Shown piece after piece: positions 1,750 through 14,854 of a stretch of 64,000 nucleotides of DNA (within the stretch, counting starts at the first letter, position 1; each line of letters opens with the position of its first letter). The position numbers and the translations under genes are program-made. Source of the stretch: a bacterium (GTDB lineage: Bacteria; UBA8248); NCBI GenBank assembly GCA_965213685.1, contig CBDBZY010000064.1:320001-384000 (forward strand), written 5' to 3'. The notes beneath the pieces are model-generated. The model saw only the letters and a list, made by a program, of their open reading frames with translations, was not told the origin of the DNA and ran no database searches.

Positions 1750-2850
1750 TCAACCTTTAGTATCAGTGCCACTACATAATGATTGTAACACATGTTCATC
1801 AGCGACATCTTCCTGATTTTGCTGCTCTTCTTTGGATTGCTGAATGCTTTGCTCGATCACATACTGCTCTAGAAGAACTCGTGCTCGAAGCCCACTGCTG
1901 AAAATCTGCCCCATTTCCTCTCCAACCATCCATCCCAGCGCAGGGCTGCCCACCTTACCCCCAATTTCAAAACCACGCTCAGAAAATATTAGGCTCTGGT
2001 CTTCCAGAAACTTCTCTTCCTCCTTTGCGCTGACACACTCTGGTGATTCCACCAGTCTGTTGTAGTTTATCATCACCATGGCAGGCTGAGCCTTCTTGTG
2101 CATGGCACGCAAAGCAGCAAACCAGAAGGAGCTCAGCCAGTGGTCACGGTCTGGGAGTGAGGACGGATCTCGAAAACCAGTAGGGATGATCGGTAGAGCT
2201 TCTGAACAATGAGGACTTACTTTAACAACATCATTGAGTGTGGCTTTTATTTTGTCAACCCATTCGGCAATTTTATATTTGAAAAGCTTAGACAACTCCT
2301 CCTTATCTTCCTTGTGCCTGGCAAGCATCATGTCGTCATTTATCATCTCAAGCTCATTGGCATACGTGAGGGCTATCACAGCGTGATCCCAGAGGCTGTG
2401 CCCAAAGGCATCTGTCAGCTTCTCCAGGGCCTTGACCTCTTTTGAGTCACTCGTGAATCGCGTGGTCGAGATGCTAACACAGAACACGCAGAGATCAATG
2501 TCAGTGCACTTCGCCTTCATGTCCGCAATGTATTCTGCCTCTCTCCCCGTGCCGTCCTGCAAGCCTGGGGAGTCCCACACCTTCACTCGGACCCCACTCA
2601 CTGTTGTCTCGTAGCACGTCACCTCAGAGGTCATCGGGTCAAGCTCTCCGCCTTCCTCAGCCAATTTCTGACCAATCATAGCGTTCACTAGCGTAGACTT
2701 TCCTGCGCCCGTTCTTCCCGTCACGAAAATGTTGACGGAACTGCTGGATTGAATCCATTCCTTAAGCTCTTCCTTAATTCTTTCGGACTGTACCGCACGG
2801 AGGACCTCTCCTAGCAGTTCCTCTAAGACACCACTCTGCCGCTGCCCCAT
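1750..2850 (-). CDS. AIG1/GIMAP/Toc34-like P-loop GTPase, type A1 (366 aa, intronless, predicted N-myristoylated)
   Basis: Starts MGQRQS; G1 GRTGAGKS, switch-I DPMTS, G3 VWDSPG, conserved-box STTRFT, G4-like IALTYAN, LPDRDHWL; colinear with the paralogue at 11665. Confidence 0.88.
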   Translation of the reverse strand: MGQRQSGVLEELLGEVLRAVQSERIKEELKEWIQSSSSVNIFVTGRTGAGKSTLVNAMIGQKLAEEGGELDPMTSEVTCYETTVSGVRVKVWDSPGLQDGTGREAEYIADMKAKCTDIDLCVFCVSISTTRFTSDSKEVKALEKLTDAFGHSLWDHAVIALTYANELEMINDDMMLARHKEDKEELSKLFKYKIAEWVDKIKATLNDVVKVSPHCSEALPIIPTGFRDPSSLPDRDHWLSSFWFAALRAMHKKAQPAMVMINYNRLVESPECVSAKEEEKFLEDQSLIFSERGFEIGGKVGSPALGWMVGEEMGQIFSSGLRARVLLEQYVIEQSIQQSKEEQQNQEDVADEHVLQSLCSGTDTKG

Positions 2851-2976
2851 ACCTAGCCGTATTTTTCGCGTGCACGGAGGAGCTGGCAGCTTAGCCACGC
2901 CTCCTCGCACGCGTGCAAGAAGGCGTGGCTAGATGGCGCGCCCCTTCCCAGTAATTTTGATCACGCGGATCGATAA
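2851..2976. promoter_or_regulatory. Compact bidirectional promoter between divergent GTPases A1 and B1, with a central 40-bp palindrome
   Basis: 126 bp between the two ATGs, CpG-rich. 2892-2931 tagccacgcctcctcgcacg|cgtgcaagaaggcgtggcta is a dyad with 2 mismatches; a YY1-like agatggcg is adjacent. Confidence 0.6.
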
Positions 2977-4068
2977 ATGGCGTCTAAAGCCCTTCTAGAC
3001 AAGCTGGGTTTAACGCGAGAGGAAAGAAAGAAATTCGAAAAGACGCTTCGACAGGCGAAATTAGATGTCCACGTTTTAGTGGCGGGTAAAACTGGCACTG
3101 GAAAATCGAAGCTGGTCAACGCCCTCACTGGGGCCATCGTGGCACGTGAGGGGCACAGCACCGACCCAGAATCGGGCTCGGTGCAGCAATACCAGGCTCG
3201 TACTGAAGGCGGCTACACGGTCAATGTTTGGGACAGCCCCGGTCTCTTTGATGGCTCTGGTAGGAATCGCGACTATGTGGAAAGTATGCGAAGAGAGTGT
3301 GGTGACAAAATCGACATACTGCTCTACTGCATTAGTATGTCTGACAAACGAGCAGATCTAGATGAGATGACGTCAGGAATGAGGTTATTGACCGAGACCC
3401 TAGGACAAGATGTTTGGAGTCATGCAATGATCATTCTCACATTTGCCAATGTTGTCGCTGAAAGAATTGCTAAGGAATGCTCGGATGCAGAAACAGTGGA
3501 AAGCAAGTTTCAGGCAAAGGTTGAACAGTGGAAGAAGAAGGTGCACTCTGCACTCGAGGGTGCTGGTGTGCAGCATGAGATGATTGCACAGGTCTCCATT
3601 GAACCAGCCGGGCATTACCTCATTCCTCACCTCCCCGACCGAATCCACTGGCTTGGCTACCTTTGGCTGCTGTTCCTCTTCCACATAAAAGACGAGGCCA
3701 AGCTAGCTATTCTTATCACCAATGAAAACCGCATATGGAGCTCAGAGTACCTTCAGCCTAGTGAACTGGCTGGACTGATTGAAGGAGCCGAAGACACCAG
3801 CCAAATACCACTAGTCATAAATCGTGAACATGCCATCAAGATTGGAATAATCGGTGGTGTAGGAGGTGCAGCCACGCTTGTGGGCGGAGTCACGGGAGCT
3901 GCCGTTGGGGGAGTACTGTTGGGCACTCTCACGGCTGGTGTGGGGGCTGGGGTGGGGGTGGCGGCAGGTGGTGCTGTGGGAGTGGGGGTCGGTTTGCTCT
4001 GCTCTCATGCAGTCACCAAGATGCTGGAAAGGAGAAAAACTAAGAAAGAATCGAGAGAATCATCATGA
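2977..4068 (+). CDS. AIG1/GIMAP/Toc34-like P-loop GTPase, type B1 (363 aa, intronless) with C-terminal glycine-zipper hydrophobic segment and basic tail
   Basis: G1 GKTGTGKS, G3 VWDSPG, DILLYCISMSDKR, G4-like IILTFAN, LPDRIHWL; C-terminus GIIGGVGGAATLVGGVTGAAVGGVLLGTLTAGVGAGVGVAAGGAVGVGVG followed by RRKTKK. Confidence 0.9.
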   Translation: MASKALLDKLGLTREERKKFEKTLRQAKLDVHVLVAGKTGTGKSKLVNALTGAIVAREGHSTDPESGSVQQYQARTEGGYTVNVWDSPGLFDGSGRNRDYVESMRRECGDKIDILLYCISMSDKRADLDEMTSGMRLLTETLGQDVWSHAMIILTFANVVAERIAKECSDAETVESKFQAKVEQWKKKVHSALEGAGVQHEMIAQVSIEPAGHYLIPHLPDRIHWLGYLWLLFLFHIKDEAKLAILITNENRIWSSEYLQPSELAGLIEGAEDTSQIPLVINREHAIKIGIIGGVGGAATLVGGVTGAAVGGVLLGTLTAGVGAGVGVAAGGAVGVGVGLLCSHAVTKMLERRKTKKESRESS

Positions 4069-12744: not shown

Positions 12745-13849
12745 GATTAGTGTTACATCTAATTTCGAACTGGACTCTTTATGCGTGTTCCTTTTGGTAA
12801 ATGCATTTTGAATAATTATTTCACATTAGTACTTGCCACCATGCCACAGCTGTATATATAGAGATGAAAATAATTTGAAGTAATGGGATATGTGGAGCTG
12901 TTAGAACCATTTCCTTGTTTGTCCTAACAATATGCTAGAAGTACACGCAGCTAGAGATGACCATGACAATTACCACAGTATGGGTGTAGGCGAACCCATG
13001 GCTTCTGAGGGTATACTGTGCAAGGTCAGCAAATTTAAGGAATGCAGGATGTGGATGGATTTTGCTTATTATATTTGCATGCTAGGACACACTATCCGTC
13101 GCTCATTAATAACTCTACTTGTGTCTTTAAAACTATATAACCTCACACAATCAACTCGCCTGATAGCAGGGCTCTTTAGCTACTGGTATGTCTAGTGAAG
13201 CTTTGCCAAACCATCCACAAGTCTGGGAGAAGTTTCACCAGTCCGCTCTGTGAAGTCTTAGTAGGGTCACAAAACTCGTCTGAAAAAATTTTGTGCAAAC
13301 GCTCTCAATGTACATGTAGGATTTTGCCTATGCATAAATAACACATAGCCCGAACCCTTCTGAGAAACCTTACATGAGGGTACACACACCGCAGCCCTCA
13401 CTGCAGATACCAGTGACAACTTGTACCACAAAACAATCATGCAATTAATGGCCATGCCACAGTGTATGATGATTGATAGGTCATTTCCACTGACAACATT
13501 GACTTTGTATGCAGCTATGCACAAATGCATTGTGGTACACAGCCTAGTAGCTGGCAAGGGACAACCTTTCACGCTGTCCAACCATAGATAATAGCTTCGT
13601 CCGAAGCAATCACATGTATATCTATGGTCCAACCAATGCTCAATGCACTCTGGCCTGTACTCGCTCTACTCGCTTCTGTTCATGATGTCCTTTGCCCGTA
13701 CGTTACTTCTTCATGGTATACGGCAGTATTGTGAAGTGTCAACCTTTGCAGAAATCGACGGAAGTCATTTACGGAATGACGTAAGTACGATTCTCTATCT
13801 CTACCTAGACTGCCCAGACGTTGTACGGACTACGTGGGGCTCGCAAATT

Positions 13850-14854
13850 ATGGCGTCCGAAGAGGTAACTGCCCTGTTAGACCACTTGGAATTAACGGCA
13901 GAAGAAAGACAGAATTGTGAGGAAGCGTTTTCACAAGCGAGATTAGATACCCACATATTAGTGACGGGTGAAACTGGCACTGGAAAATCGAAGCTGGTCA
14001 ACGCCCTCACCGGGGCCATCGTGGCACGTGAGGGGCACAGCATCGACCCAGAGTCGCATTCAGTGAAGAAATACCAGGTTCGCTCTGAAGACGGCTACAC
14101 GGTCAATATATGGGATAGCCCCGGTTTCTTTGATGGCTATGGCAAGGAGCGCGATTACGTGCAAAGTATGAAGGAGAAGTGTGGCGGTAAGATTGACGTG
14201 CTACTCTACTGCATTGACATGTCTGCCCCACGGGCGGATGAAGCTAGAATGTTATCAGGAATTAGGTTCTTGACTGAAGGCCTAGGACAAGATGTGTGGC
14301 AAAATGCAATGATCATCCTCACATTTGCCAATATTGTCGCTGAAAGAATCACCAAAAAATCAGCTCCTGAGGAAGAAACTGTGAAGAAGTTTCGGGCAAG
14401 TGTTGCAGAGTGGAAGGTGAAGGTGGGGTCTGCTCTTGAGCGTGCTGGTGTACAGCGTGAGGTAATTCCAGAAGTCCTTGTTGAACCAGCCGGGGATTAC
14501 CTCGATCCTCACTGTCTCCCTGACCGTGTCCACTGGCTTGGGTACCTCTGGCTGCAGTTCTTCTTTAAAATCAAAAGAGAGGCTGTACTGGCTATTCTTA
14601 CGACCAATCAACACCGTATACAAAATTCGGAGTATCTTCAACCTACAGAATTGGATCCTTTGCAGCAGCAGAAACTGCTCATTGTACACCAGGAAAGCTG
14701 TGAGAACACCCTTTGGTGGAAAATATTCAGTAAAATATCTGGAGCTAAATCATATGCAGAGAGTAAAAGTGAGTTGACTAATAAAGTTTTTGCTCTTGTA
14801 ATCAAGAAGGTGCTGGAAGGAAAGATCAAGCTTAAGAGAATAAAAGCTTCATAA
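13850..14854 (+). CDS. AIG1/GIMAP/Toc34-like GTPase, type B2 (334 aa, intronless), lacking the glycine zipper
   Basis: Start MASEEV chosen by homology to B1 MASK; GETGTGKS, IWDSPG, DVLLYCIDMSAPR, IILTFAN, LPDRVHWL; basic C-terminus. ETS-like cggaagt and CRE-like tgacgta motifs lie ~65-90 bp upstream. Confidence 0.88.
   Translation: MASEEVTALLDHLELTAEERQNCEEAFSQARLDTHILVTGETGTGKSKLVNALTGAIVAREGHSIDPESHSVKKYQVRSEDGYTVNIWDSPGFFDGYGKERDYVQSMKEKCGGKIDVLLYCIDMSAPRADEARMLSGIRFLTEGLGQDVWQNAMIILTFANIVAERITKKSAPEEETVKKFRASVAEWKVKVGSALERAGVQREVIPEVLVEPAGDYLDPHCLPDRVHWLGYLWLQFFFKIKREAVLAILTTNQHRIQNSEYLQPTELDPLQQQKLLIVHQESCENTLWWKIFSKISGAKSYAESKSELTNKVFALVIKKVLEGKIKLKRIKAS

Follow-up and report, generated by a model that had tools for sequence, protein, structure and literature searches.

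The 64,000-bp stretch of DNA analyzed here (assembly GCA_965213685.1, contig CBDBZY010000064.1, positions 320,001 to 384,000; hereafter the window) carries four intact genes and one pseudogene for AIG1-type GTPases. They fall into two sequence classes, a soluble type (A) and a membrane type (B), and an A gene adjoins a B gene twice (Table 1). A1 and B1 are head to head with their start codons 126 bp apart, and A2 is followed in tandem by B2 across a gap of 1,105 bp that holds no open reading frame (ORF) of at least 100 aa. An earlier description made from the letters of this DNA (the sequence-only reading) had reported four single-exon GTPase genes and a pseudogene in two classes, with an A beside a B both times in spite of a change of orientation; both statements held at the places given.

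Table 1. Features of the GTPase locus, in window coordinates
Feature	Description	Position	Strand	Basis
A1	Soluble-type Toc34-like GTPase, 366 aa	1750-2850	-	ORF, Pfam AIG1
A1-B1 spacer	Divergent spacer, 126 bp, putative bidirectional promoter	2851-2976		Sequence read
B1	Membrane-type Toc34-like GTPase, 363 aa	2977-4068	+	ORF, Pfam AIG1
B-type pseudogene	Fragment directly 3' of B1	4183-4666	+	tblastn
A2	Second soluble-type GTPase, 359 aa	11665-12744	+	ORF, Pfam AIG1
B2	Second B-type GTPase, open frame of 403 aa	13643-14854	+	ORF, Pfam AIG1

Organization of the locus

The conserved proteins align collinearly with their relatives over the whole length, first residue to last, and the coding regions of the four genes are therefore uninterrupted (a single ORF each). 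In B2, the start that matches B1 and other B proteins is the ATG at 13850 (MASEEV), which gives a protein of 334 aa encoded at 13850-14854. A1 begins with MGQRQS and ends with LCSGTDTKG; the corresponding ends of A2 are MGQQLS and VCGGTDMKG. The pseudogene lacks residues 1-56, P-loop included, and approximately residues 161-233, and it has a frameshift near 4357 and an in-frame stop. The only copies of the family in this assembly (about 8 Mb) are those in the window.

A1 and A2 are 62% identical. B1 and B2 share 67% identity over 271 aa, after which they diverge completely, and the identity between the classes is close to 35% (A1/B1, 35%). Nonsynonymous (dN) and synonymous (dS) divergence were 0.227 and 0.588 for A1/A2, and 0.224 and 0.546 for B1/B2 (267 codons). 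The pattern indicates that the two pairs arose by a single block duplication that was followed by a change in orientation. As the dS values are so similar (0.59 and 0.55 when rounded), the two pairs of the window count as one observation of adjacency and not as two independent ones, which corrects the sequence-only reading. The dN/dS ratio of about 0.4 in both paralogue pairs argues that both copies are under constraint.

The A and B proteins are Toc34-like members of the AIG1 superfamily

The hidden Markov model search that had been proposed for these genes placed all four above the gathering threshold of Pfam AIG1 (PF04548, 27 bits), with 67.1 bits for A1, 45.9 for B1, 63.1 for A2, and 33.3 for B2; the MMR_HSR1 score of B2 was slightly above its AIG1 score (36 bits). 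When the A-clade profile was compared with solved structures, the best match was pea Toc34 (1h65, E 1.5e-14), followed by Arabidopsis Toc33; lower matches were Irgb10 (2.8e-9) and Irga6, and then GIMAP4 and GIMAP7 (1e-7). The AlphaFold2 models had a mean predicted local distance difference test (pLDDT) value of 83.4 for A1 and 68.7 for B1, with values below 50 over residues 286-338 of the latter. Pea Toc34 (1h65) was also the best Foldseek match of both models (E 3.8e-9 for A1 and 1.1e-9 for B1). The top matches of A1 and B1 were 1h65, 3bb1, 3bb4, and 3def (E 1e-9 to 1e-7, target-normalised template modelling score 0.57-0.67, and 0.62-0.67 for the closest), and the groups that came after Toc34/Toc33 were GIMAP2/7 and then the IRGs.

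NCBIfam ranked the families in this order too, but its cut-offs were missed by far: B1 scored 57.7 bits against the 421.55 required for Toc34 (TIGR00991), and A1 scored 46.8 against 660.7 for Toc159 (TIGR00993). Pfam IIGP (PF05049) matched A1 with 41.6 bits (cut-off 24) at profile positions 23-130 of 375 only; since this match is confined to the G domain, the helical domains of the IRGs are absent. The A and B proteins are Toc34-like members of the AIG1 superfamily and not orthologues of Toc34, Toc159, GIMAP, or IRG proteins. From the label AIG1/GIMAP/Toc34-like that had been given to them, the AIG1 membership stands, with the correction that by profile and by fold they are nearer to Toc34 than to GIMAPs. 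The family to which they belong comprises 612 clusters (50% identity) at E up to 1e-30 and 2,295 at 1e-10.

Both classes have a P-loop GxxGxGKS, a G3 motif WDSPG, and LT(F/Y)AN at the G4 position, which aligns with ALTHA of Toc34; in A1 these motifs read GRTGAGKS, WDSPG, and LTYAN, and the conserved box reads STTRFT. A and B also have in common the motif LPDRxHW, which is invariant and precedes a hydrophobic helix. All four genes, and the pseudogene as well, keep the arginine of the conserved box (TTRFT, TARFT, DKRAD, APRAD, and TEVRAG). From what is known of Toc34 and GIMAPs, we take this basic residue to lie at the dimer interface.

Architecture of the soluble and membrane types

We defined the myristoylation pattern, which is PROSITE-like, as Met-Gly at the start and a small residue at position 6; A1 (MGQRQSG) and A2 (MGQQLSS) fit it, and the 126-bp spacer upstream of A1 contains no ATG. 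Of the 29 aligned A proteins, 15 showed the pattern, A1, A2, and the outgroup trio among them, and one A subclade starts with MD, ME, or MA. The type A described earlier as myristoylated is thus so by pattern in A1 and A2, and in only about half of the aligned clade. At the other end, a C-[GS]-G motif falls among the final 15 residues of 23 of the 29 proteins, which often end in D-x-K-G; the D-x-K-G end is also seen in many soluble-type relatives, distant clades included. At the place where B proteins have their zipper, the A proteins and those of a related clade, C (see below), have a polar segment with periodic glycines, which in the AlphaFold model of A1 forms a helical hairpin with high confidence (residues 275-299 and 303-356). 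A Pfam search at E values up to 10 found nothing meaningful in the C-terminal 116 residues of A1 or in the tails of B1 and B2.

The C-terminal region of B1 (approximately residues 286-342) has an uncharged run of 59 residues, of which 71% are Gly, Ala, or Val, with 10 GxxxG motifs and then the basic end RRKTKKESRESS. A tail of this kind was present in 19 of the 22 aligned B proteins (uncharged run of 32-68 residues rich in Gly, Ala, and Val, 6-11 GxxxG, basic end). With about 55 uncharged residues, it would be long enough to enter a membrane as a helical hairpin. Long, uncharged, and Gly-rich tails are also found in all eight proteins of the D clade (see below) and in the earliest-branching B protein (P0145), and for this reason we consider the glycine zipper ancestral to the B/D type. 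B2 lost the zipper by an internal deletion and kept a short amphipathic basic tail (..VIKKVLEGKIKLKRIKAS); two B proteins from other sources (P0125 and P0127) share this form, which argues that it is a maintained variant. The two tails that had been reported for B, glycine zipper and basic, were both seen, but they are not equivalent alternatives: the first is ancestral and the second, in B2, is a deletion variant.

The zipper assignment rests on the measure of the uncharged run. A laxer count (at least four GxxxG in the last 90 residues) was rejected as unspecific; it also flagged 29 of 33 C and 12 of 57 A proteins, owing to their polar Gly-periodic segment.

A and B occur together in other assemblies

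For 207 proteins, clades were assigned on a tree and cluster members were added; the counts that follow are among the matches listed. Two proteins were taken to be on the same contig when the contig size in bp reported for each match was identical, which is a proxy. A quick maximum-likelihood tree of a subset of 55 proteins recovered A (support 97) and B (96), together with two further clades. The C clade (99), sister of A, had 33 proteins that start with MAE.. and have neither the myristoylation pattern nor the C-G-G motif; the D clade (100), on the B side, had eight zipper-tailed proteins. Support was 86 for A+C, 94 for all soluble types, and 70 for B+D. Tails were trimmed before the tree was built by a step that needs the PDR motif, and those of C, D, and other clades without a match were kept.

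Among contigs from other assemblies that hold a listed B protein, 28 of 33 with a size of at least 3.9 kb also hold a listed A protein, as do 26 of 28 of at least 20 kb. The B-holding contigs with no listed A measure 4,317, 5,093, 12,380, 23,367, and 299,292 bp. Counted as clusters at 90% identity, 19 of 22 B clusters on contigs of at least 3.9 kb have an A partner. Conversely, a listed B was found on 26 of the 35 contigs of at least 20 kb that hold an A. The smallest contigs with both types measure 3,979 bp, with an A of 410 aa and a B of 399 aa, and 6,622 bp, too little for anything else to fit between A and B. Exactly one A and one B were found on 20 of the 28 shared contigs. The sequence-only reading had made its case depend on linkage of this kind in related assemblies, and the linkage was found for A and B and likewise for C and D.

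Four of the contigs (355,918, 68,037, 293,043, and 1,122,409 bp) have an A with the myristoylation pattern, an A without it, and a B together. The 293,043-bp contig has two B-clade proteins, one with a zipper and one without.

Among D-holding contigs of at least 3 kb, six of seven also hold a C, one of them with a size of 3,071 bp. One such pair comes from the sponge Geodia barretti, where CAI8036368 and CAI8036367, a C and a D protein with consecutive accessions, are annotated as neighbours on one 28,522-bp contig. The combinations across the two systems were absent from the contigs with listed proteins (A-D 0/43, B-C 0/33, A-C 0/43, and B-D 0/33). On contigs of at least 20 kb with other clades of the family, a second listed member was found on none of 24, where distant partners may lie beyond the reach of the search.

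For 20 A/B pairs, the distances among A proteins and among B proteins were correlated (Mantel r 0.877, reached by 0 of 5,000 permutations; slope 1.03), and nearest neighbours agreed in 17 of the 20, which fits inheritance of the two genes as a unit. Our results showed that the A and B types have been inherited, duplicated, and retained together. Given the support of 70 for B+D, the A/B and C/D systems likely, though not certainly, derive from the co-duplication of one ancestral pair. In a full-text search of the literature, no paper was found that describes such a pairing of soluble and membrane types in sponges, in agreement with the earlier impression that it had not been described.

A terminal motif found on either partner

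In two lineages the A partner has no C-terminal C-G-G. The A proteins concerned are P0194 and P0195, from contigs of 478,137 and 90,451 bp, and P0004, from the contig of 6,622 bp; the B proteins found with them on these contigs have the motif at the N-terminus. P0124 and P0126 have ..ECGGPF(D/Y)DEL.. joined to the usual B head, and P0132 starts with MASSGCSG. These are the only three of the 50 B/D heads examined that have an N-terminal C-G-G. The simplest reading of these proteins is that an A gene once lay directly upstream of a B gene on the same strand and that fusion followed by a split would have given the tail of A to B. Since the motif was kept after the shift, we argue that it may serve the pair rather than one of the proteins.

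Prediction of an A:B complex

The complex of A1 (residues 1-366) and B1 (residues 1-290), both with alignments, scored 0.46 in each of three runs, and the best of the controls (n = 3) scored 0.00. The runs agreed in at least 78% of contacts, and the pLDDT of the partners was at least 77. Of 80 solved complexes, 58 reach the mark set for this score, as do 2 of 110 mismatched pairs; those that reach it with a score of up to 0.60 are seven of the 80 solved complexes and both passing mismatches. The prediction, which had been suggested for comparison with A:A and B:B, gives weak support to an A:B heterodimer, which we regard as plausible.

All 19 multi-domain matches examined (among the best 150 of 7,068 representatives) were same-type tandems or fragment mosaics. 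Chains with two G domains of the same type (D-D or soluble-soluble) include P0226, P0233, P0242, P0241, P0258, and P0058; the family therefore also exists as built-in tandem dimers.

Origin of the DNA and neighbouring sequences

The window is part of a 1,635,321-bp contig with a guanine-cytosine (GC) content of 44%. The assembly (about 8 Mb) is filed as a prokaryote genome and is mixed: most contigs have 61-69% GC, and about 4.9 Mb are in 22 contigs with 54% GC or less. The latter, including the 1.6-Mb contig, look like host (animal) DNA. Named relatives, among the matches listed, were only the two Geodia barretti proteins, and the B-clade profile found no relative when run against 185,579 prokaryote species genomes. 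None of its 41 pattern matches in genome contigs was confirmed, nor were any of 71 in metagenome contigs. The host is most likely a sponge, judging from these relatives, which fits the earlier guess of an early-branching animal.

Between 16850 and 19450 there are (CA)n/(TG)n microsatellite arrays, from hundreds of bases to a kilobase long, with strong GC and AT skew. Mobile-element remnants are found at 50416-50985 (-) and 54325-55293 (+), with an RVT_1 reverse transcriptase (118 bits) and a DDE_3 transposase fragment (66 bits). A single ORF of 501 aa at 40127-41632 (-) has a CABIT domain (33 bits, cut-off 24). On the basis of the arrays, the reverse-transcriptase and DDE remnants, and the CABIT gene, we consider the window animal DNA.

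The ORF of 460 aa at 28046-29428 (-) had no match in Pfam. By eye, it shares with the CABIT ORF a motif VEKGFY..(I/V)..G(D/E)(V/I)YN(V/I)HF, and its low-complexity ends are Pro-rich and Ser-rich. The three ORFs between the two GTPase pairs (7846-9003, 9049-9480, and 9742-10536; 7846-10536, plus strand) also had no match in Pfam, and by eye this run looks like a decayed retroelement. Immediately 5' of the A2 start there is a long inverted repeat (approximately 11444-11632) whose arms, read by eye, have ATAGCGGGTATTTTTCGGGGGGTAAAATTTTCGTGG and its complement; it resembles a miniature inverted-repeat transposable element.

A bacterial or contaminant origin of the GTPase genes, suggested by their single exons, the prokaryote filing, the many contigs of about 65% GC, and the bacterial (cyanobacterial) AIG1/MMR_HSR1 GTPases that form the nearest large clusters of the ESM Atlas (which holds only clusters of at least 50 members), is hardly credible and was rejected, given the 1.6-Mb contig of 44% GC, with its (CA)n arrays, retroelement and transposase remnants, and CABIT gene, the Geodia barretti proteins as closest named relatives, and the lack of any match in the prokaryote genomes scanned.

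Discussion

On balance, we lean toward the view that the locus holds two copies, plus a decayed B, of a conserved sponge-type two-gene module whose products act as one GTP-gated membrane switch. B would sit in the target membrane, and A would use its lipid groups to alternate between this membrane and a free state. The G domains of A and B would pair in a nucleotide-dependent manner across a Toc34-type interface that carries the Arg or Lys of the conserved box. By analogy with Toc34-Toc159, GIMAP2-GIMAP7, or the IRGM regulators and myristoylated Irga6, the pair may then act as a GTP-gated switch at the membrane. As to its role, our leading guess, with an indirect pointer from the literature on sponge AIG1-domain genes, is that it deals with microbes or symbionts at the membranes of phagosomes or vacuoles; the defence role suggested by the sequence-only reading is likewise a guess.

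Several points weigh against a joint switch. Concerning the proteins, myristoylation, palmitoylation, and insertion into the membrane are purely motif-based predictions. Of the 42 proteins of the wider B clade, 12, B2 included, have no zipper, and membrane anchoring is therefore not obligatory; a Pfam search at E values up to 10 found no glycine-zipper family in the tail of B1. The conserved-box arginine, although present in all the genes of the window as had been noted, is not invariant in the relatives: at this position the aligned A proteins (n = 29) have 24 R, 4 K, and 1 H, and the aligned B proteins (n = 22) have 15 R and 7 K. Concerning the interaction, the complex score does not separate A:B from A:A or B:B, and it may reflect likeness to Toc34/Toc33, since homodimers of these are solved; no clear A-B fusion was found among the 19 multi-domain matches.

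Concerning linkage, a shared contig is not adjacency when the contig is large, and orientation and spacing elsewhere are deduced from the small contigs and the Geodia accessions. A large share of the contigs could represent alternative assemblies of only a few species, in which case the counts would not be independent. The correlated distances of A and B would be expected of any two sets of orthologues from the same species. A listed partner is missing on 9 of 35 A-holding contigs of at least 20 kb and on 18 of 24 C-holding contigs of at least 3 kb; given these contigs and the incomplete lists of B and D proteins that word-based searches give, some soluble-type genes may stand alone.

The most serious alternative, which we regard as rather unlikely yet worth keeping in mind, is that A and B are co-regulated neighbours that share regulatory DNA, each forming homodimers separately, one at a membrane and the other in the cytosol, with no contact between them. 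The A1-B1 spacer invites this explanation. It has a perfect 10-bp inverted repeat, with TAGCCACGCC at 2892-2901 and its complement at 2922-2931, and within it, about midway between the two ATGs, a palindrome GCACGCGTGC at 2907-2916. Such a symmetric element at the center of a short spacer between head-to-head genes would suit a bidirectional promoter. With up to one mismatch, the 10-mer TAGCCACGCC has eight matches in the window against 2.18 expected; three are exact, two of them in this spacer. Separate action would also agree with the solved relatives, which are homodimeric according to the titles of 2j3e, 3def, and 5fph, with the existence of same-type double-G-domain chains, and with the weak A:B complex score. 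However, B2 follows A2 on the same strand after 1,105 bp, with a different element upstream of A2, and a shared-promoter layout is therefore not what is conserved. Moreover, C-G-G is found on B in exactly those lineages where A lost it, which is hard to explain if the two proteins act apart.

The sole other exact copy of TAGCCACGCC in the window occupies 29900-29909 (-); the minus-strand ORF at 28046-29428 starts about 470 bp downstream of it.

We give less credence to a passive array of tandem paralogues that remain adjacent by inertia and have no functional tie. According to PMC7053062, AIG genes are often found in tandem arrays of mixed orientation, and in Biomphalaria glabrata there are 50 AIG footprints in arrays of 2-11 genes; the duplication that gave A1B1 and A2B2, together with the pseudogene, would be ordinary birth-and-death dynamics. 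Against such inertia, A and B (35% identity) separated before A split from C and B from D, and before any of the sampled lineages diverged. The pairing is also clade-specific, with one A and one B on 20 of the 28 shared contigs, whereas random duplication would mostly put like beside like.

The two-gene switch that we favour can be compared with three known systems. Toc34/Toc33 gave the best profile and fold matches for A and B, which also resemble them in the conserved-box Arg, in a context like D-x-x-R-(F/V/A)-(N/D), and, in the case of B, in carrying a C-terminal membrane anchor. Toc34 and Toc159 are different members of one family whose G domains pair with each other, and the title of 2j3e points the same way. 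Unlike in Toc34, the anchor of B is a glycine zipper of about 55 residues and not a single helix, and the host is an animal without plastids; and unlike Toc159, which is large and has A and M domains, the A protein is small and has a myristoylation motif. A role in plastid import is implausible because the host is an animal, as indicated by the CABIT domain, the retroelements, and the Geodia relatives.

GIMAPs share the Pfam AIG1 domain with A and B and were the second-best fold group. Some GIMAPs are tail-anchored, and the soluble GIMAP7 stimulates membrane-bound GIMAP2 through a G-domain heterodimer with an arginine finger. C-terminal helices are predicted in the A1 and B1 models. The similarity to GIMAPs is weaker than that to Toc34 (profile E 1e-7 vs. 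1.5e-14). We know of no GIMAP pair that forms a conserved two-gene unit of two fixed clades and, to our knowledge, GIMAPs have no glycine-zipper tail.

The IRG (p47) proteins resemble the A type by the IIGP match of A1 over the G domain, and IRG structures were among the fold matches. IRG coding regions are single-exon, and two classes, membrane-bound GMS regulators and GKS effectors, regulate each other at membranes. The four proteins of the window differ from this division of the P-loop into GMS and GKS, as all have GKS. Irga6, a GKS effector, has a myristoylated MGQ..S start, a sequence with which A1 and A2 also begin.

The closest named relatives are from Geodia barretti. CAI8036368.1 ('Translocase of chloroplast 159') and CAI8036367.1 ('Immune-associated nucleotide-binding protein 7') are of the same family and combine a soluble C with a zipper D; they differ in being the sister C/D system and not A/B, and their names are automatic. 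Our literature search found no paper that treats these two proteins as a pair. In the sponge Dysidea avara, according to a 2024 study (PMC11229196), two genes with PF04548 were higher after exposure to foreign symbionts than to seawater microbes, and the family was said to deserve attention. These, like ours, are sponge AIG1-domain genes, and the two rise together.

A bolder version, to which we assign little probability, is that the module is an ancient, self-contained two-subunit GTPase machine of sponges, with a lipidated soluble subunit and a glycine-zipper membrane subunit. As a unit these would have been inherited and duplicated (A/B, C/D, and local copies), and even a terminal Cys-Gly-Gly motif would have passed from one to the other. 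The zipper hairpin, beyond serving as an anchor, would be a GTP-gated element that perturbs membranes or forms a channel, directed at phagosomes or symbiont vacuoles. If true, this would place cell-autonomous defence or symbiont control at the base of the animals, independent of the vertebrate IRG and GBP systems and derived from the same Toc/AIG1 stock.

GTPases of the AIG1, Toc, GIMAP, and IRG groups work through G-domain dimers, and which protein pairs with which is a recurring open question. The locus suggests an answer for one lineage: two fixed clades, one soluble and one membrane, that are kept as a gene pair over deep divergences make a defined heterodimer candidate. What is new is the occurrence of AIG1/Toc-type GTPases as a conserved soluble/membrane two-gene module with a glycine-zipper anchor, in animals long said to lack the family. 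Earlier surveys (PMC8857920 and PMC7053062) report that GIMAP/AIG genes were undetected in sponges, and the finding corrects this older statement that sponges lack AIG1/GIMAP-type genes. It also gives studies of sponge immunology and symbiosis a concrete two-gene unit to follow.

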